This document shows, one piece after another, positions 2 to 6,067 of a stretch of 64,000 bases of DNA. A program made the translations under genes and the position numbers. The stretch is from Dehalococcoidia bacterium (lineage in GTDB: Bacteria; Chloroflexota; Dehalococcoidia; SM23-28-2; RBG-16-64-32): contig CAXXTF010000002.1 of the NCBI GenBank assembly GCA_963665775.2, positions 1,312,001 to 1,376,000 of the forward strand. Reading direction: 5' to 3'. The notes under the pieces are model-generated. The model was not told the DNA's origin, made no database searches, and saw only the letters and a list, made by a program, of their open reading frames with translations. Within the stretch, counting starts at the first letter, position 1. Every line of letters begins with the position of its first letter.

Positions 2-451
2 CGAATCATCATCGGCGAGGTGCGGGGCCCAGAGGCGTTCGATATGTTGAACGCCATGAACACCGGCCACGAAGGCTCTCTCTCCACGGTTCACGCCAAC
101 TCGCCCCGGGACGCCTTAGCCCGCATCGAGAACATGGTGCTTATGGCCAACCTGGAGCTGCCCGACCGGGCGATCCGAGAGCAGACCGCCTCTGCTCTAC
201 ATCTGATAATCCAGCTGGCCCGCTCCACGGACGGCGTGCGCCGGGTGACTCACGTTACGGAGGTCACCGGCATGGAGGGGCAAATAGTTACGATGCAGGA
301 CCTGTTTCTCTTCCGGCAGACAGGTGTGGATCAGGAAGGGAAAGTCCTGGGAAGTATGGGTGCTACCGGCATTCGGCCCGGTTTCGCTGAGCGATTTCAG
401 GCGGCCGGGATCAAGCTGCCGGAGCGGCTGTTCCTAGGCGCGATCAGGTGA
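2..451 (+). CDS. tadA: Tad pilus assembly ATPase TadA/CpaF, C-terminal part (5' truncated by window edge)
   Basis: Open frame from base 2: [39 protein letters not shown] (Walker B and His box of CpaF family); directly upstream of tadB/tadC. Confidence 0.93.
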
Positions 452-455
452 TCAC

Positions 456-1433
456 ATGGACCCCATAGTCATTCTGATCGCAGCGATGGTGCTCCTGGCC
501 GTCTTCTCATTGGTGATTGGTCTCGGCGGCTCCCACAACAAGGAAGGGCTGGGGGATCGACTGGAGACATTCCGGTCGGACCAGCAGGCTCAGGCAGACC
601 CAGAAGCGAATAGCCTTAGCCTTCGGAAGCGATCCTATAGCGACTTCCCCATCCTGAACACCTTCCTTTCGCACCTTAAGGGCTCGGAGAAAGTGGCTTT
701 GCAGCTGGATCGAGCCGGAGTCCCGTTACGAGTGGGCGAGTATTACTTGATCCGCTACACTGTGGCGGCGCTCTTCTTCGTGGTACCTTTCGCTTTTAGC
801 CAGACGCTCTTAACGCTGATCCTGAGCGTGCTCCTTGCCACAGTTGGCTATGCGCTGCCCGCAATGTATATAGGGCGGAGGAAAGCATCCCGTATGTCCC
901 GGATGAACGCCCAGTTGGCGGAGCTGCTAGATCTAGTAGCCAATTCCCTCAAGTCCGGTTACGGCCTAATGCAGAGCCTTGATTTCGCGGCGCGGCAGAT
1001 AAGCGACCCGCTTTCCGCAGAAGTGCGCAGGACGTTGCGCGACGCCAACCTGGGCATGAGCACTGAAGAGGCGCTGGACGCCCTGGGGGAACGTGTTTCC
1101 AGTCCGGACCTGGACATGGTTCTGACGGCCATCAATATCCAGCGGTCAGTAGGCGGCAACCTGGCCGAGATTCTGGAGTCTGTTACCTTCACCATGCGAG
1201 AGCGGAAACGTATCCGGGGAGAGATCTCAACCCTGACCTCACAGGGGATAATGACCGGCATCCTCATCGGGGGACTACCCGTAGGCGTAGGCCTGCGCTT
1301 CATGGTCATCAATCCAAGTTACATGAGCTTACTGTTCACGGAGACAGCGGGCCGCATTATCCTCCTCGCAGCCGTGGGGCTGGAGGGCCTGGGCATCCTA
1401 TCGATAAAGCGGGTCCTGGCCATCGAGGTATAG
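456..1433 (+). CDS. tadB: Tad pilus inner-membrane protein TadB (T2SS F family)
   Basis: N-terminal TM, LDLVANSLKSGYGL, INIQRSVGGNLAEIL motifs; position after tadA. Confidence 0.9.
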   Translation: MDPIVILIAAMVLLAVFSLVIGLGGSHNKEGLGDRLETFRSDQQAQADPEANSLSLRKRSYSDFPILNTFLSHLKGSEKVALQLDRAGVPLRVGEYYLIRYTVAALFFVVPFAFSQTLLTLILSVLLATVGYALPAMYIGRRKASRMSRMNAQLAELLDLVANSLKSGYGLMQSLDFAARQISDPLSAEVRRTLRDANLGMSTEEALDALGERVSSPDLDMVLTAINIQRSVGGNLAEILESVTFTMRERKRIRGEISTLTSQGIMTGILIGGLPVGVGLRFMVINPSYMSLLFTETAGRIILLAAVGLEGLGILSIKRVLAIEV

Positions 1434-1445
1434 ATAGTAGGAGTC

Positions 1446-2360
1446 ATGCTGATAGCGCTCATCGCTTGCGCCGTGTTCGGGTCGGTAGCACTTCTGGTCA
1501 TCGGCCTGGGCCGCCGCACGTCCTCAGTTATGGAGTCTCGACTGGACGAGTTCCGCGACCAAACAACGATGTTTGACGGGGAAGAGGCTGACCTAAACAT
1601 ATCCTTCGCCGCCCGCATCCTGAAACCGGGGATGGAAGGTATGGCGGGGGCGTTCGGATCGGTGCTGCCGGCCTCACTACTGACCAAACTAGAACGACAG
1701 CTGGTCATGGCTGGCAACCCAATGACGTTGAACACCTTCGTGGGTATCTGGGCCGCCTGCGTCCTCTTCATGACAGGATTTATCCTGTTTGCTGTGATAA
1801 CGGTAGGCATGACGGTAGGACCTCTGCAGGCATTCATGGTGCTGGTCTTCGGCATAGTGGGGTGGATGTTGCCGCGCATATGGCTAAGCGGAAGGGTGAA
1901 GGCTAGGCAGAAGGAGGTCGTAAAGTCGTTACCGGACGCCCTGGACCTGGTGACGGTGTGTGTGGAGGCAGGGCTGGGCCTGGACGCCGCTCTGGCCCGC
2001 GTGGCCAGTTGGAGCGATGGGCCCCTGGCGGATGAGATCACCCGGATGCTGCGAGACATCACGATGGGAAAGCTGCGCCGGGAGGCCCTCATAGAGCTGA
2101 CTGAGCGCCTGGAGGTGGAGGAGCTAACCAGCTTCGTCAACTCCGTGATACAAGCTGAACAGTTGGGCGTGGGTATAGCCCAGGTGCTCCGTGTGCAGTC
2201 AGAGCAGATCAGGACCCGTCGCCGCCAGAAGGCGGAGAAAGCCGCTCATGAGGCAGCGATCAAGATGCTCTTCCCATTGGTGCTGTTCATATTCCCGGCG
2301 TTCATCCTGGTGATATTGGGCCCAGCCGGGATCCGCATCACGCAGTCACTCGCCAAATAG
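1446..2360 (+). CDS. tadC: Tad pilus protein TadC (T2SS F family)
   Basis: LPDALDLVTVCVEAGLGLDAAL and KMLFPLVLFIFPA motifs. Confidence 0.9.
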   Translation: MLIALIACAVFGSVALLVIGLGRRTSSVMESRLDEFRDQTTMFDGEEADLNISFAARILKPGMEGMAGAFGSVLPASLLTKLERQLVMAGNPMTLNTFVGIWAACVLFMTGFILFAVITVGMTVGPLQAFMVLVFGIVGWMLPRIWLSGRVKARQKEVVKSLPDALDLVTVCVEAGLGLDAALARVASWSDGPLADEITRMLRDITMGKLRREALIELTERLEVEELTSFVNSVIQAEQLGVGIAQVLRVQSEQIRTRRRQKAEKAAHEAAIKMLFPLVLFIFPAFILVILGPAGIRITQSLAK

Positions 2361-2376: not shown

Positions 2377-2754
2377 ATGGCTCTGGGGCAGAAGATCCGC
2401 GCATTACGCGGAGAGCTGGGCATGAGCCAGGCGCAGCTGGCCTCCTCCGCCAAGCTGAGCCAGGGCTATCTGTCACAGCTTGAGAACGACGAGGTGCAGA
2501 ACCCCAGCGCCGCCGTGATCTTCCGGCTGTCCAAGGCTATTAACGCGGATCCGGGCCGGCTGTTCCAGGCGGCCGGCTACTCCGAGATAGAAGCAAGCAA
2601 GAGCAACGGAAGCGACAGCTTCGACGCCACCGTGGACCCAGAACTATTGCGCTTCATGGCCCACCTCCCTCGGGAGCAGCAAACGCATCTCCTCCGCCTA
2701 CTGCGTACATTGGAGCGCAGGACGACCGCGGAGGCGGAGGCCAGCCGCCCCTAA
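2377..2754 (+). CDS. XRE-family HTH regulator (SinR-like), paralog 1
   Basis: LGQKIRALRGELGMSQAQLA...SQGYLSQLE...NPS Cro/C1 HTH; AGGAG RBS; 16 bp after tadC. Confidence 0.9.
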   Translation: MALGQKIRALRGELGMSQAQLASSAKLSQGYLSQLENDEVQNPSAAVIFRLSKAINADPGRLFQAAGYSEIEASKSNGSDSFDATVDPELLRFMAHLPREQQTHLLRLLRTLERRTTAEAEASRP

Positions 2755-2812
2755 TCGAGGCACTCAGGCAAGACAATTCCGCCCTGCGCCAGCCGGCGGT
2801 GCGAGCCTCCAG

Positions 2813-3181
2813 ATGAATGAGATGATCCAGGTAAGAAACGAAACAAAGGGAACGGTAGTGGCAGACGAGACGCAGGTAGCCGACAGTGTCCGCACCCGGT
2901 TCTGGGGCCTCCTCGGTCGGCCTTCCCTGCCGGAGGGACACGGCCTCCTACTGCGACCCAGTTCCAGCATCCATACCGCCTTCATGCGGTTCGCCATCGA
3001 CGTGGTGTTTCTGGACAGGGAGAACCGGGTGGTAAAGGTCGTGCCGGAGATGAAGCCGTTCCGGATGGCGGTAACCTGGCCCTGCGCCCACAGCGCCCTG
3101 GAGCTACCGGCCGGAGCAGCGGCGCAGGCCCGGATAGAGCGCGGCGACCAGTTGGTAATAGCTGGGCAGGTAGCACGATAG
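2813..3181 (+). CDS. DUF192-family protein
   Basis: ADSVRTRFWGLLGR, SIHTAFMRFAIDVVFLD, ALELPAG motifs. Confidence 0.85.
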   Translation: MNEMIQVRNETKGTVVADETQVADSVRTRFWGLLGRPSLPEGHGLLLRPSSSIHTAFMRFAIDVVFLDRENRVVKVVPEMKPFRMAVTWPCAHSALELPAGAAAQARIERGDQLVIAGQVAR

Positions 3182-3239
3182 GCGGATGAAAGTGTGCATA
3201 TTGGCATACCAATCAGATACAGACGACCCATATCTTATA

Positions 3240-3269
3240 TTGACAGGCAGAGGGGAACCGACGGACAAT
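3240..3269 (+). promoter_or_regulatory. Putative sigma70-type promoter of second XRE gene
   Basis: TTGACA (3240-3245), 18 bp, GACAAT (3264-3269) in an AT-richer intergenic region. Confidence 0.5.
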
Positions 3270-3300
3270 CTGGAGAGCCCCGTGCTGAGAGTAGGAGCAG

Positions 3301-3768
3301 ATGAACCTAGGAGATAGGATACGCGGGCTGCGCGACACGCTTGGCCTGACTCAGGGTCGACTGGCCAACAGTGCCTCGCTGAGCCAAGGCTATCTGTCAC
3401 AGCTGGAAAAAGGGGACGTCAAGAACCCTTCCGCAGCTGTCCTCCTGCGGATAGCGCGGGCCACGGATGTGGACCCTGACGAACTGTTCGAGGCGGCCGG
3501 TTACCCCACAGTACGAACCCTGCGCCAGATCTATCGGAGCTATGAGTCGACCATAGAGCCAGACCTGCTGAGTTATCTCGGTCGCCTTCCCCGGGACCGC
3601 CAGAGACGCCTCTTCCACCTCCTGGAAGGGCTGCAGAGCCTGCTGCAAGGCACGGACCGAGATGGAGACATAGACGGATTCCGGAGGGGAGGCGATGAGC
3701 CGATGGCCGGCCCCCGTAGCGAGGAGCGCCACCCTCATCTCGAGCCCCTTCCCGTCTCAAAGAAATAA
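3301..3768 (+). CDS. XRE-family HTH regulator (SinR-like), paralog 2
   Basis: LGDRIRGLRDTLGLTQGRLA...SQGYLSQLE...NPSAAVL; AGGAG RBS; clearly paralogous to 2377-2754. Confidence 0.9.
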   Translation: MNLGDRIRGLRDTLGLTQGRLANSASLSQGYLSQLEKGDVKNPSAAVLLRIARATDVDPDELFEAAGYPTVRTLRQIYRSYESTIEPDLLSYLGRLPRDRQRRLFHLLEGLQSLLQGTDRDGDIDGFRRGGDEPMAGPRSEERHPHLEPLPVSKK

Positions 3769-3771
3769 AGC

Positions 3772-3951
3772 ATGGCAGACTCGTCGGAGAATCGATCGTC
3801 GCTTGCGGATAAGATCGACCCTGACCTGCTCCAGATGCTGGCCAGAATGCCCAGGCGCCAGCAGCGACAGGTGCTCCTCCTGCTCATGGTGGTGGAGAAC
3901 CTGCTACATGAGATGATGCGGGAGCGGCGCTCAAGGGAAGAGCTGGAGTAG
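3772..3951 (+). CDS. 59-aa protein homologous to the C-terminal (non-HTH) domain of the two XRE proteins; SinI-like anti-repressor candidate
   Basis: Manual translation MADSSENRSSLADKIDPDLLQMLARMPRRQQRQVLLLLMVVENLLHEMMRERRSREELE; starts 3 bp after XRE-2 stop; not listed in the ORF track. Confidence 0.8.
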   Translation: MADSSENRSSLADKIDPDLLQMLARMPRRQQRQVLLLLMVVENLLHEMMRERRSREELE

Positions 3952-3981
3952 CGCCTAAGAGGGGGATCGAGGACGGTGATG

Positions 3982-4009
3982 GCCCGCCAATCAGGCGGGC
4001 TTATTTTAT
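3982..4009 (+). terminator. Intrinsic terminator
   Basis: GCCCGCC-AATCA-GGCGGGC followed by TTATTTTAT, between convergent genes. Confidence 0.7.
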
Positions 4010-4035
4010 GTGGGCGCAGTCGTCCCCCGTAGCAG

Positions 4036-5220
4036 CTAGGGAATGACCACCGCTCGCATACTTTCGGCGATGGTCTGCAGGTCACCAGGACCCATCACGG
4101 GTCCATCGATGAAGTGGATGATCGTGCGCAGGCCGGCCCGGTCGAACACCAGGCTCTGAGCGCCGCCTTCACCCCAGACTATCTGGCTACCGGACGTCTG
4201 CCAGGACCCCTGGACGTAGGTGGCAGGGGTCCCATCAGACAGGATGCGGTCCAGAGCGAAGCCCTGCAGAACCGCGATGTCGTCGCCGGAGGCGCGCTCC
4301 TGATAGATAAGGATTGTGGGCGGGCTGATCGACTCCAGGCCGACATCCCCTGCGTAGGCGAGGAGGAATACACCGCCTTCGCCCGCTGTCAGGGGCTGCG
4401 GGTAGTAGGTGGAGGAGACCTGCCGAAAGCCGGGAGGGATACTCGTTGGCTCCCACACCGGCTGCCCCAGCAGCGCTGAGGCCTCACTGAGAGTGACATC
4501 GGCACCCTCCACGACATCGGCGTAGGAAGGGACGATGGGTGGAGCGCCGGTCTCAGATACGCCCATATAGTCGCCCACGATCCGGACCACTTGAGCCACC
4601 GGATGGTTGGCGAGGCCGGTGGCCGGGATAGGCCCCAGGGCAGCTACCAGGAGGGCGGCGGCGGCACCGGAGGCCGCGAGCCTGGGCCAAAGACGGCCCC
4701 CGAGGTCCCCGAAGAGCCGGCCACGCGGATGGGCTGGTCGGAGCGGAGCCTGCGGCTTCAGTCCCGCACCCTCCCGGGTGGGCTCGGCCAGGGCCAGCTC
4801 CCCCTCGCGAGCGCGGATGCGGGCCTGTACCTGCTGCCAGACGGCACCCCGCTGTTCTTCGGCAAGGATCGCGCCCTGCTCAGCCACGCGGCGACGGAGA
4901 GCGCTGATATCCTGCAACCCCTGGTTATCGAACTCCAGCCCGCTGTCGGTGACAGCCGACTCGACAGGGCCCTCAATCGAATCCGTGAACCTATTGGGCT
5001 CTTCCGTCTTCGTGTGCCGGAGGCGGCTGAGCACCTCCCGCCAGACTACCGCCTCATGCTGGGCAGCCGCGTGGGCCGAGGAGCGAGCGGCCTCCAGGCG
5101 AATCCTGGCAATACCCAGCAGTTCCTGCAACTCGTAGTCATCTAGGGGGTCGGGCTGACGCCCCTGAACGAGAGCTTCGACAGCGCGGGCCAGCTGACCA
5201 GCCCGCTCATACTCTCTCAC
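4036..5220 (-). CDS. Putative membrane-anchored anti-sigma factor with extracytoplasmic C-terminal domain
   Basis: 4-bp overlap with ECF sigma stop; central hydrophobic segment LAASGAAAALLVAALG; C-terminal PTSIPPGF-type domain (DUF4367-like by recollection). Confidence 0.6.
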   Translation of the reverse strand: MREYERAGQLARAVEALVQGRQPDPLDDYELQELLGIARIRLEAARSSAHAAAQHEAVVWREVLSRLRHTKTEEPNRFTDSIEGPVESAVTDSGLEFDNQGLQDISALRRRVAEQGAILAEEQRGAVWQQVQARIRAREGELALAEPTREGAGLKPQAPLRPAHPRGRLFGDLGGRLWPRLAASGAAAALLVAALGPIPATGLANHPVAQVVRIVGDYMGVSETGAPPIVPSYADVVEGADVTLSEASALLGQPVWEPTSIPPGFRQVSSTYYPQPLTAGEGGVFLLAYAGDVGLESISPPTILIYQERASGDDIAVLQGFALDRILSDGTPATYVQGSWQTSGSQIVWGEGGAQSLVFDRAGLRTIIHFIDGPVMGPGDLQTIAESMRAVVIP

Positions 5221-5866
5221 CGGCCGACACCCCCTGCGACTTGTATGCGGTCCCGCAGTTTGCGAAGGGCACGGAAGACGGTAACCCGCACGTTGACTTC
5301 GCTGGTCTTGAGGACCTCCGCTATCTCCCTATTTGTGAGTTCGGCGTCAAACTTCAGGGAGATAATCTCCTGCTCGCGCCGAGGCAACGTTCGAAGGACG
5401 GCACTGAGATCCCTGATACGCTCCTTGCGAAGGAGCGTATCCTCCGGATCACGAGATTGCTGTATGAACTCGTTCTGCCGGACCGCCTCCTGGACGGCCT
5501 TGGCGGCGGGCTTCTCTTTGCGCCAGTGAGAGGACACCTCATTACGGGCTATGAGGACACCTCATTACGGACTATAGTGAATAGCCAAGGGCCGAAGGCA
5601 TCTGGCGACCGCAGGGCATGTACCTTGATGAAGGCCTTCTCGAAGATATCGGATACGATGTCCAGGGACAGCTCCTTATCTTGAACCCGCCCGTACACGT
5701 AGGCGAACACCTTCGAGAAGTGCCGGCTGTAGAGCTCAGCGAATTCGCCGGCCGGGCCGCTCTGCAGGCTGGGCTCAGGGGCCGGGCCGGCCTTCGATTT
5801 AAGCCTGGTGCGAGCGGCGGTTCTATCAGTAGTGCGCTGGGGCAGGGCTGCGCGAGCTGTTGTCAT
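5217..5866 (-). pseudogene. ECF sigma-70 factor split by a 23-bp tandem duplication
   Basis: 5549-5866 encodes region 2 (FAELYSRH...DIVSDIFEKAF...WLFTI); 5217-5537 encodes region 4 (LPRREQEIISLKF...EIAEVL...VFRALRKLR); removing one repeat copy restores one frame. Confidence 0.85.
5530..5575. repeat. 23-bp tandem duplication (1 mismatch)
   Basis: GAGGACACCTCATTACGGGCTAT (5530-5552) and GAGGACACCTCATTACGGACTAT (5553-5575). Confidence 0.95.
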
Positions 5867-6067
5867 CCTTCGCTCCTCGTCATCCGCCGGACCGATCGGT
5901 CGGGGGCGGTGGGGAGGCCGCTTGGCCTTCTGGAATCTGGATGAACAATAGACGCGGCATGGCCAAGCCCGTTACACATTGGAACAAAGAGATTGGTAGG
6001 TCTTTTGGGGCTTGATAGGCTGGATTCTCCCGTAGCTATGGTTCTCACCGGCTGTTCTGTCAAGTGT

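Follow-up and report, generated by a model that had tools for sequence, protein, structure and literature searches.

A free-standing copy of a regulator C-terminal domain beside a tad pilus locus of Dehalococcoidia, a candidate modulator of two XRE proteins

Introduction

How could a protein of 59 aa, which resembles the C-terminal domain (CTD) of two neighboring transcriptional regulators and has no DNA-binding helix-turn-helix (HTH) of its own, take part in the control of a surface pilus? This question is raised by a 64,000-nt stretch of DNA, termed the window, from a bacterium of the class Dehalococcoidia (genome G000), in which the gene of such a small protein lies behind the genes of two paralogous XRE-type regulators, XRE-1 and XRE-2, next to the genes of a tad/flp pilus (Table 1; coordinates are those of the window unless they carry a genome and contig mark, such as G000:C2). 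These genes are a conserved regulatory unit of one Dehalococcoidia order and are tied to the tad/flp pilus locus. As to what the small protein does, it is moderately probable that it forms mixed oligomers with XRE-2, with XRE-1 or with both, and in this way modulates their oligomerization-dependent binding to DNA, by a logic that would be like that of SinI and an ancestry that would be separate.

That a regulator can be titrated by its own oligomerization domain in free form is textbook knowledge in Bacillus, where the example is SinI, and in plants and animals, where microProteins and Id-type proteins, small paralogs of dimerization domains, draw transcription factors into complexes that do not bind DNA. 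To our knowledge, there are few bacterial cases outside the Firmicutes. The original prediction, made from this DNA alone, saw in the locus a three-protein switch of the SinR/SlrR/SinI type that is attached to a Tad pilus operon and is possibly bistable, with the small protein as a dominant-negative anti-repressor. The description of the genes that underlies it has been upheld by the analysis reported here, and its mechanistic part is weighed below.

The shared C-terminal domain

The two regulators are 48% identical across 113 aa (E 1e-37), have the stretch LSQGYLSQLE...NPSAAV in common, and are both above the cut-offs of their HTH families (PF01381, PF13560). XRE-2 is laid out as an HTH (residues 1-68), a CTD of three helices (residues 71-120) and a variable, disordered tail (residues 122-155). 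The small protein, which matches no HTH family, corresponds to the CTD: in BLASTP alignments with the C-terminal parts of the regulators it shows 40% identity both times, over 42 aa for XRE-2 (E 3e-8) and over 30 aa for XRE-1 (E 1e-6), and by hhalign its residues 12-49 align to residues 82-119 of XRE-2 (96.8% probability, E 2e-10), while the match to XRE-1 covers residues 80-112 of the latter (96.5% probability, E 1e-9). All three open reading frames (ORFs) were confirmed, and so were the two claims that the regulators are paralogs of each other and that the third ORF is an HTH-less paralog of their CTDs.

A joint alignment of 37 sequences gives the common core [VI]-D-P-[DE]-L-L-x-x-L-x-x-x-[PS]-R-x-x-Q-x-x-L-L-x-L-L, in which D16, L19, L20, L23, Q31, L35, L37, and L38 are invariant or nearly so in all three proteins. 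AlphaFold2 models built from natural alignments place the helices of the CTD at residues 71-84, 87-95, and 98-120 of XRE-2, between the HTH and the disordered tail (pLDDT 80.6), and predict three helices for the small protein as well, at residues 4-13, 17-25, and 28-58 (pLDDT 87.5). Helix 3 of the small protein is longer than its counterpart in XRE-2, overshoots the region common with the XRE proteins, and contains an unbroken hydrophobic run, VLLLLMVV, whereas the XRE proteins have charged residues or glycine in the second half. More than one side of such a run would have to be buried, and an oligomer interface would be in keeping with this. The predicted complex of XRE-2 residues 66-120 with the small protein, computed with alignments, reached a score of 0.18 against a mark of 0.32 and weighs neither for nor against binding.

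Judged from sequence and model searches, the small protein and the shared CTD appear to form a narrow, undescribed family. The small protein gave no match in Pfam, NCBIfam, PADLOC or PHROG, and none of the three proteins matched the SinI family PF08671 at E <= 1; a six-frame search of the genome with PF08671 gave three sub-threshold matches, the best at 11.2 bits (cut-off 31.4) and none at the locus. Compared with PDB sequences, the small-protein profile found a chance match only (E 0.31) and the shared-domain profile nothing under E 0.15. Foldseek with the small-protein model returned nothing at E <= 0.001, VIA-align wide gave a best Z of 5.4 (NblA), a value that common helical arrangements also reach, and the ESM Atlas held only the protein's own unnamed cluster. 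The CTDs of the XRE proteins, searched alone against PADLOC including its capH model, had no match at E <= 10.

In the PDB sequence searches it is the HTH only that is matched, by the N-terminal domain of CapH (7t5u, E 1.2e-9), DdrO (E 3e-8), C.AhdI, and SinR. The PADLOC capH model recognizes XRE-1 (E 1.5e-9, aligned residues 1-113) and XRE-2 (E 3.8e-11), and in Foldseek the full-length XRE-2 model gave TM values of only 0.39-0.43 with DdrO, RghR, and SinR (TM 0.39 and a root-mean-square deviation of 10 for SinR 1b0n_A), the alignments to full-length DdrO spanning TM 0.39-0.47 with a deviation of 11. When 1.84 billion representative proteins were searched by profile, no more than 41 clusters came out at E <= 0.001, two of which, consisting of long repetitive proteins, were judged false. 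A large protein collection holds 352 clusters of the small protein at the 90% identity level; among the matches listed, which represent 120 of the 352 clusters, lengths are 58-60 aa, the names given are all 'hypothetical protein', and the sources are metagenome-assembled genomes of Dehalococcoidia or Chloroflexota.

Conservation and selection

The original prediction had considered that the small ORF might be a decayed third paralog, in which case neither conservation nor purifying selection would be expected, and both were found. The comparison covers 41 genomes of the same order, namely the window genome and 40 relatives, and as the relatives are kin the counts across them are not independent. 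The small gene is present in 33 of these genomes, which belong to six genome families, at E <= 2e-18 and with 69-88% identity; it was not found in the other eight, which comprise all six genomes of family f2 and, from the window's own family, G012 and G016. Among 301 sampled genomes of the class, 12 contain the small protein, and all 12 are from the window's order. The loci of 20 relatives were fetched with long flanks and make 21 loci together with the window; the protein is 58-59 aa long in 20 of the 21, and the distance from the XRE-2 stop codon to the small start codon is -1 to 18 nt (median 3) in every one of them.

The ratio of nonsynonymous to synonymous differences per site (pN/pS) was calculated pairwise by the Nei-Gojobori method on codon alignments of 21, 18, and 21 sequences, in which synonymous sites are saturated (pS ~0.67). 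For the core of the small protein (residues 13-52) pN is 0.111 and pS 0.676, giving a ratio of 0.16, compared with 0.23-0.27 for the two HTH domains (0.23 in XRE-2), 0.34-0.40 for the CTDs of the XRE proteins (0.31-0.34 for XRE-2 in a separate count), and about 1 for their tails (0.90 in XRE-2). In the small protein 22 of the 59 alignment columns are invariant, and the X8 and X12 contigs, which come from two strains that diverge slightly, show no difference inside 3772-3951. By these measures the small protein is the most constrained protein of the module, and not a decaying paralog.

The tails evolve neutrally (pN/pS ~0.9) except for the last few residues ahead of the start of the small gene, and in one genus (L032 9186-9743) the disordered tail of XRE-2 carries tandem 7-residue repeats that are AEDTRRG-like.

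Association with the tad/flp locus

The claim that the regulators are attached to a tad operon was borne out. XRE-1, whose start lies 16 nt past the tadC stop and is preceded by an AAGGAG box, is the final gene for a regulator in the tad transcription unit, and it follows tadC in 19 of the 20 relatives' loci. The order cpaF-tadB-tadC-XRE-1-(DUF192)-XRE-2-small is likewise kept in 19 of the 20, with cpaF syntenic in 19 as well. The DUF192 gene is an optional part of the module (10/20 loci); its protein drew no match from PADLOC or PHROG, and nothing relevant was found in the literature on DUF192. Behind the small gene there follows a convergent gene, coding for a sigma factor of the extracytoplasmic function (ECF) type, in 19/20 loci, accompanied by a 393-aa protein that is recognizable in 15/20. 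The exception is G026, where XRE-2, the small gene, and the sigma gene are together and XRE-1 is on another contig.

The tadC gene adjacent to XRE-1 is 49-63% identical in the relatives by tblastn (51-64% by genome search), while the eight genomes without the small gene also lack XRE-2 and have tadC only as a paralog of 39-46% identity. In three genomes that have the module, G008 (71% complete), G021 (82%), and G026 (93%), no orthologous tadC was seen. A further 109 loci, from 29 species genomes and 80 metagenomes and in part from the same genomes as the first 20, include 94 with the small gene. Of the 15 without it, 11 are cut off by a contig edge at most 282 nt from the last XRE match and are uninformative on its absence, one is unrelated, and in three the two XRE genes are fused. 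The module and one specific tad/flp pilus locus co-occur, as do the module and a convergent ECF sigma/anti-sigma pair.

Many relatives possess a second, paralogous tad locus, that with the tadC of 39-46% identity, and in f2, G012, and G016 it is the sole type. The XRE and small-protein module accompanies the first tad type only, and G000 has a single tad locus.

Upstream of the window's first gene, on G000:C2 (L047), the tad/flp cluster is complete, with its ordered parts ending in CpaF, tadB, and tadC. They include a divergent prepilin peptidase, Flp pilins, TadE- and TadG-like proteins, CpaB/RcpC, and a TadZ/CpaE ATPase, and all components are above the Pfam cut-off except two Flp pilins (24.1 and 21.9 bits; cut-off 32.2). 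There are two intact Flp pilin genes of 83% mutual identity, followed by a degenerate third copy (L047 8827-8910, 8432-8831). The TadZ/CpaE-like ATPase (L047 11841-13094; G000:C2:1309841-1311094) has an N-terminal receiver domain (PF00072, E 9e-14), which is a possible further signaling input to the pilus.

Natural fusions of XRE-1 and XRE-2

Single proteins of 262-285 aa exist with the layout HTH-CTD-linker-HTH-CTD, in which an XRE-1-like half precedes an XRE-2-like half. Clustering at 50% identity groups them into 5 clusters, and clustering at 90% identity into 13 (records P0145, P0153-P0155, P0160, and P0161-P0168; loci L102 5079-5930, L114 1778-2602, and L118). Gene fusion of this kind is Rosetta-stone evidence that XRE-1 and XRE-2 act jointly, and it supports the expectation of the original prediction that the two regulators work together. 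In the three fusion loci, which offer 419-861 nt of downstream DNA, the small ORF and tad genes were both not found. The absence of the small gene exactly at the fusions fits a role in the control of pairing, on the basis of three loci from one lineage. The fusion loci have a different, low-GC context, and the source of one fusion record is named Candidatus Woykebacteria, which suggests a transfer of the regulator pair between phyla.

Transcription units and candidate operators

The original prediction gave XRE-2 and the small ORF a promoter and a terminator of their own, and a candidate for each was located (Table 1). The unit has one promoter-like site against 0.3 expected from shuffled sequences, and of 90 distinct upstream regions, 57 have a TTGAC element at the corresponding position. 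Ahead of this promoter is a 16-bp palindrome, TATTGGCATACCAATC, that is a candidate operator. In degenerate form it has two sites in the 2.35-Mb genome compared with none for a control pattern, and it is found upstream of XRE-2 in 8 of the 21 loci when up to two mismatches are allowed. Within the order the pattern is present in 17 of the 41 genomes and beside XRE-2 in 10 of those, and it is present in none of the six genomes of family f2, which lacks the module.

The second copy in the genome (G000:C1:269610-269625; L049 1501-1516) is in AT-rich intergenic DNA, ~200 nt upstream of the gene for a DUF5317 membrane protein, with a BTAD-domain regulator nearby. In other genomes of the family the neighbors of the palindrome are unannotated, bar one ECF sigma paralog. 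In the flp or sigma promoters no shared XRE operator could be defined.

Two other repeats were noted in these regions. Where DUF192 abuts XRE-2 (L038, L046, L066, L069, L076, L081, L103, and others), a conserved GC-rich palindrome of about CGCGCGTC-T-GACGCGCG replaces the sigma-70-like promoter 30-40 nt before the XRE-2 start codon, and it could act as another operator or form a hairpin in the RNA. In several genomes of the family an inverted repeat, GGTGAA-N6-TTCAC, stands ~15-20 nt upstream of the flp -35 element (L047 8224-8240), a second operator candidate distinct from the XRE-2 palindrome.

The ECF sigma/anti-sigma pair

The original prediction was silent on the DUF192 gene and on the convergent pair at 4036-5866. 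The motif found upstream of the sigma gene also precedes the flp-tad operon (G000:C2:1306256-1306283; L047 8256-8283) in the form GTAAC-N16-17-C[GA]TCTA. Among the relatives, 10 of 15 flp upstream regions contain GTAAC-N15-18-C[AG]TCTA and some of the other regions have CATCTT variants, and 13 of 20 sigma-gene upstream regions contain the motif. Its background is 18 matches in 715 kb on both strands of the 20 loci, the matches at sigma promoters included. In the whole window genome there are six sites compared with one for the control, two of the six being the flp and sigma promoters, and the four others have no informative neighbors. The neighboring ECF sigma factor thus probably drives the tad operon together with XRE-1 and DUF192, the last two genes being assigned to ECF control because no terminator-like site parts them from tadC.

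The 393-aa protein matches nothing in Pfam, including the anti-sigma families, PADLOC or PHROG, and it is from its position alone that it is presumed to be an anti-sigma factor. In the window the sigma gene itself is split into a region-2 ORF (5549-5866) and a region-4 ORF (5217-5537), the cause being a 2 x 23-nt tandem duplication at 5530-5575, and in the relatives checked both parts are in one frame. Contigs of runs X1, X4, and X8, from three studies, cross the duplication with no gaps, two of these runs being possible sources of the window DNA, and the contigs of X12 break there. One of the spanning contigs has 15 differences from the window, which means that the duplication did not arise as an artefact in a single assembly.

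Table 1. Positions and supporting matches of the genes and DNA elements at the regulator locus.
Feature	Position	Strand	Match or basis
cpaF/tadA-like secretion ATPase gene, 3' end	2..451	+	T2SSE, E 3e-71 (full protein); full gene G000:C2:1311099-1312451
tadB-like inner-membrane platform gene	456..1433	+	PF00482 T2SSF, E 1.2e-16
tadC-like inner-membrane platform gene	1446..2360	+	PF00482 T2SSF, E 5.3e-20
XRE-1, 125 aa, HTH and shared helical CTD	2377..2754	+	HTH_3, E 2.6e-12, 47 bits (cut-off 23)
DUF192 gene between XRE-1 and XRE-2	2813..3181	+	PF02643, E 9.7e-20
16-bp palindrome, candidate operator	3199..3214	.	~25 nt upstream of the XRE-2 -35 element
Sigma-70-like promoter of the XRE-2 and small-ORF unit, TTGACA-18-GACAAT	3240..3269	+	Motif match
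XRE-2, 155 aa	3301..3768	+	HTH_31, E 1e-12, 48.6 bits (cut-off 27)
Small ORF, 59 aa, HTH-less paralog of the XRE CTD	3772..3951	+	Homology to the CTDs of XRE-1 and XRE-2
Terminator-like hairpin and T run ending the XRE-2 and small-ORF unit	3981..4011 (hairpin 3981-4001)	+	Hairpin prediction
Presumed membrane anti-sigma factor, 393/394 aa	4036..5220	-	Overlaps the sigma stop by 4 nt
ECF sigma factor gene, regions 2 and 4	5217..5866	-	Sigma70_r2, E 4e-9; Sigma70_r4_2, E 2e-12
ECF-type promoter of the sigma gene, GTAAC-N16-CGTCTA	5949..5975	-	Motif match

Proposed mechanism and its alternatives

It is proposed that the three-helix CTD shared by XRE-1 and XRE-2, which are taken to be paralogous repressor-type regulators, serves as an oligomerization device. 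Since their recognition helices are nearly identical, the two regulators would recognize a common set of operators, whether as homo- or as hetero-oligomers. The small protein would be a free copy of the CTD without an HTH and with a longer and more hydrophobic helix 3, made in a fixed ratio with XRE-2. In CapH, DdrO, and SinR it is the CTD oligomer that enables DNA binding, and from this precedent a free CTD is expected to enter mixed oligomers that have fewer HTH heads. Such oligomers would lower or re-partition the pool of bivalent, DNA-binding-competent regulators, a dominant-negative logic resembling that of microProteins, and the small protein would in this way set both the amount and the composition of the XRE-2/XRE-1 oligomers able to bind DNA.

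The input to this system probably comes from the neighboring ECF sigma/anti-sigma pair. Since flp-tad and the sigma gene share an ECF-type promoter, induction of the pilus would raise XRE-1 relative to XRE-2 and the small protein, which are driven by the sigma-70-like promoter, and the additional XRE-1 would shift the pairing equilibrium when the pilus operon is on. No M78 peptidase (PF06114) was found at E <= 0.01 in the window genome, which is 91% complete, by a search that was positive in 7 of 14 control genomes, and hence proteolytic removal of the CTD is apparently unavailable here. The gene content, homology, conservation, selection, synteny, co-occurrence, fusions, and promoter motifs are observed, and from there on we infer the protein contacts, the direction of the effect, be it antagonistic or otherwise, the operators, and any bistability.

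Several observations weigh against this proposal. The small gene is coupled to XRE-2 and has no promoter of its own, the only promoter-like site being the one upstream of XRE-2, and an antagonist made in a fixed ratio with its target requires a further layer of control, such as competition by XRE-1 or turnover. Most genomes of the window's family are without the palindrome upstream of XRE-2, with only the extended -35 region TTATTGACAAG conserved there, and the position of the second copy in the genome is not conserved. No relation of the CTD to the C-terminal domains of SinI/SinR, CapH or DdrO could be detected. The sigma factor that would provide the input has its gene split in the window genome. 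Furthermore, G026, which is 93% complete, keeps XRE-1, XRE-2, and the small gene and has no tadC that could be found, and this, together with fusions located away from tad genes, means that the link to the pilus is not obligatory. Finally, conservation is higher in the small protein than in the domains to which it would bind. Its best-conserved stretch consists of residues 34-53 of helix 3 (consensus VLLLLMVVENLL.EM.RERR) and reaches beyond the region shared with the XRE proteins, which hints at an additional or a different partner.

The coupling to XRE-2 would fit equally well with an obligate structural subunit or co-repressor, where XRE-2 works only as a hetero-oligomer with the small protein and the latter stabilizes or bridges XRE dimers on DNA. 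A gene that follows XRE-2 at close distance in all 21 loci and lacks its own promoter suggests a fixed stoichiometry, an indispensable subunit could well be the most conserved component of the module, and bridging would be made redundant where XRE-1 and XRE-2 are fused and the small gene is lost. An HTH-less copy, however, cuts the number of DNA-binding heads per complex, and in known cases of this layout binding is lost, as with SinI (PMC3163267, cited for part of its text) and with the monomeric HTH of CapH (10.1101/2022.04.27.489752, likewise in part). An obligate subunit is regarded as rather unlikely.

A more elaborate form of the mixed-oligomer proposal is a switch of partners, which we put forward only tentatively and consider no better than an outside chance. 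The small protein would cap the CTD of XRE-2 in the ground state, and ECF-induced XRE-1 would compete with it, giving XRE-1/XRE-2 hetero-oligomers whose feedback would act on the promoters of the pilus operon, the sigma gene, and XRE-2, possibly with all-or-none adhesion as the outcome. If this is true, the loss of the small gene at XRE-1/XRE-2 fusions shows that its job is to determine who pairs with whom.

Less likely again is an action on some other target, such as the ECF sigma/anti-sigma pair or RNA polymerase, with the likeness to the XRE CTD being a trace of origin. The conserved helix 3, running to residue 53 and past the shared part, would be explained by it, as would the convergent position of the XRE-2 and small-protein unit to the sigma gene in 19/20 loci, including that of G026, which has no adjacent tad genes. 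Against such a target stand the near-invariance of the shared core in all three proteins, the presence of XRE-2 in every locus seen to have the small gene, and its absence precisely where the XRE proteins are fused. That the small ORF arose by chance or is what is left of a decaying third XRE paralog, in either case without function, is suggested by nothing other than its small size and want of a family annotation and is ruled out by the conservation data, that is, by the identity and length retained over six families, the low pN/pS, the invariant columns, and the identical X8 and X12 contigs.

Comparison with known systems

The closest parallel to the proposed mixed oligomers is SinR/SinI/SlrR (and SlrA) of Bacillus subtilis, in which there is also an XRE-type repressor with a helical C-terminal oligomerization domain and an HTH paralog that shares this domain, as well as a protein of less than 60 aa, SinI, that consists solely of the oligomerization domain, and in which a surface or adhesion program is controlled. 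The domain of SinI and SinR is a two-helix hook fold, and sinI lies upstream of the regulator gene under its own Spo0A-controlled promoter. Here, in contrast, the domain is predicted to have three helices, its sequence is unrelated to theirs (PF08671 is unmatched), and the small gene is downstream of, and coupled to, XRE-2. The system also differs in belonging to the Chloroflexota, in being associated with a Tad pilus rather than matrix genes, and in having an ECF sigma factor in the locus. Of the SinI-like switch in the original prediction, the HTH-less paralog of a regulator CTD therefore stands, while membership of the SinI family and separate regulation of the small gene, which is coupled to XRE-2 in 21/21 loci, do not. 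SinI binds SinR through residues that are conserved between the two proteins and abolishes the DNA binding of SinR (PMC3163267, PMC3917956, both cited for part of their text).

CapH/CapP and DdrO/IrrE are alike in having an HTH followed by a small helical CTD whose oligomerization is needed for DNA binding, and they provide the nearest HTH matches of XRE-1 and XRE-2. According to the part of the report used here (10.1101/2022.04.27.489752), the CTD of CapH oligomerizes, the HTH of CapH by itself is a monomer that fails to bind DNA, and DdrO dimerizes by its CTD. Unlike these systems, in which an M78 peptidase removes the CTD, no such peptidase was found in the window genome, and the free CTD is encoded by a gene. 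In Caulobacter, the RtrA/RtrB/Cdx cluster and the phage protein TgrL are paralogous XRE regulators that interact, share targets, and control the holdfast, and are thus a case of paralogous XRE adhesion regulators in a non-Firmicute; they are of another XRE subfamily, their output is the holdfast and the gene transfer agent, and no HTH-less paralog is described in the portion of the paper that is cited (PMC10688885).

The analogy to eukaryotic microProteins and Id-type proteins is one of logic only, as they are from other kingdoms and have other folds. In Clostridioides difficile, the downstream protein of the sinR/sinR' pair is said to antagonize the upstream one, both proteins reportedly keep the HTH, and there is reportedly no free oligomerization-domain protein. 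The likeness is that of two co-transcribed XRE paralogs (PMC5864091, in part). In the literature searched on Dehalococcoidia tad pili and ECF sigma factors and on SinI-like truncated XRE paralogs, no description of the present module was found.

Implications

What appears to be new is a family of unannotated and extremely conserved 59-aa proteins that, as far as paralogy indicates, would be regulator paralogs reduced to the oligomerization domain and evolved independently. By analogy, the logic of SinI seems to have arisen a second time, from unrelated sequence, in uncultured Dehalococcoidia. Paralogy alone can reveal such short, unannotated ORFs beside regulators. The three-protein system is compact, and its parts are small and can be made in Escherichia coli, with the fused XRE proteins as a natural control. 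If the ECF sigma factor does drive the tad operon, a strain in which its gene is split, such as that of the window, may not express pili. For a group of bacteria without a genetic system, the module would provide a first handle on the regulation of surface attachment.

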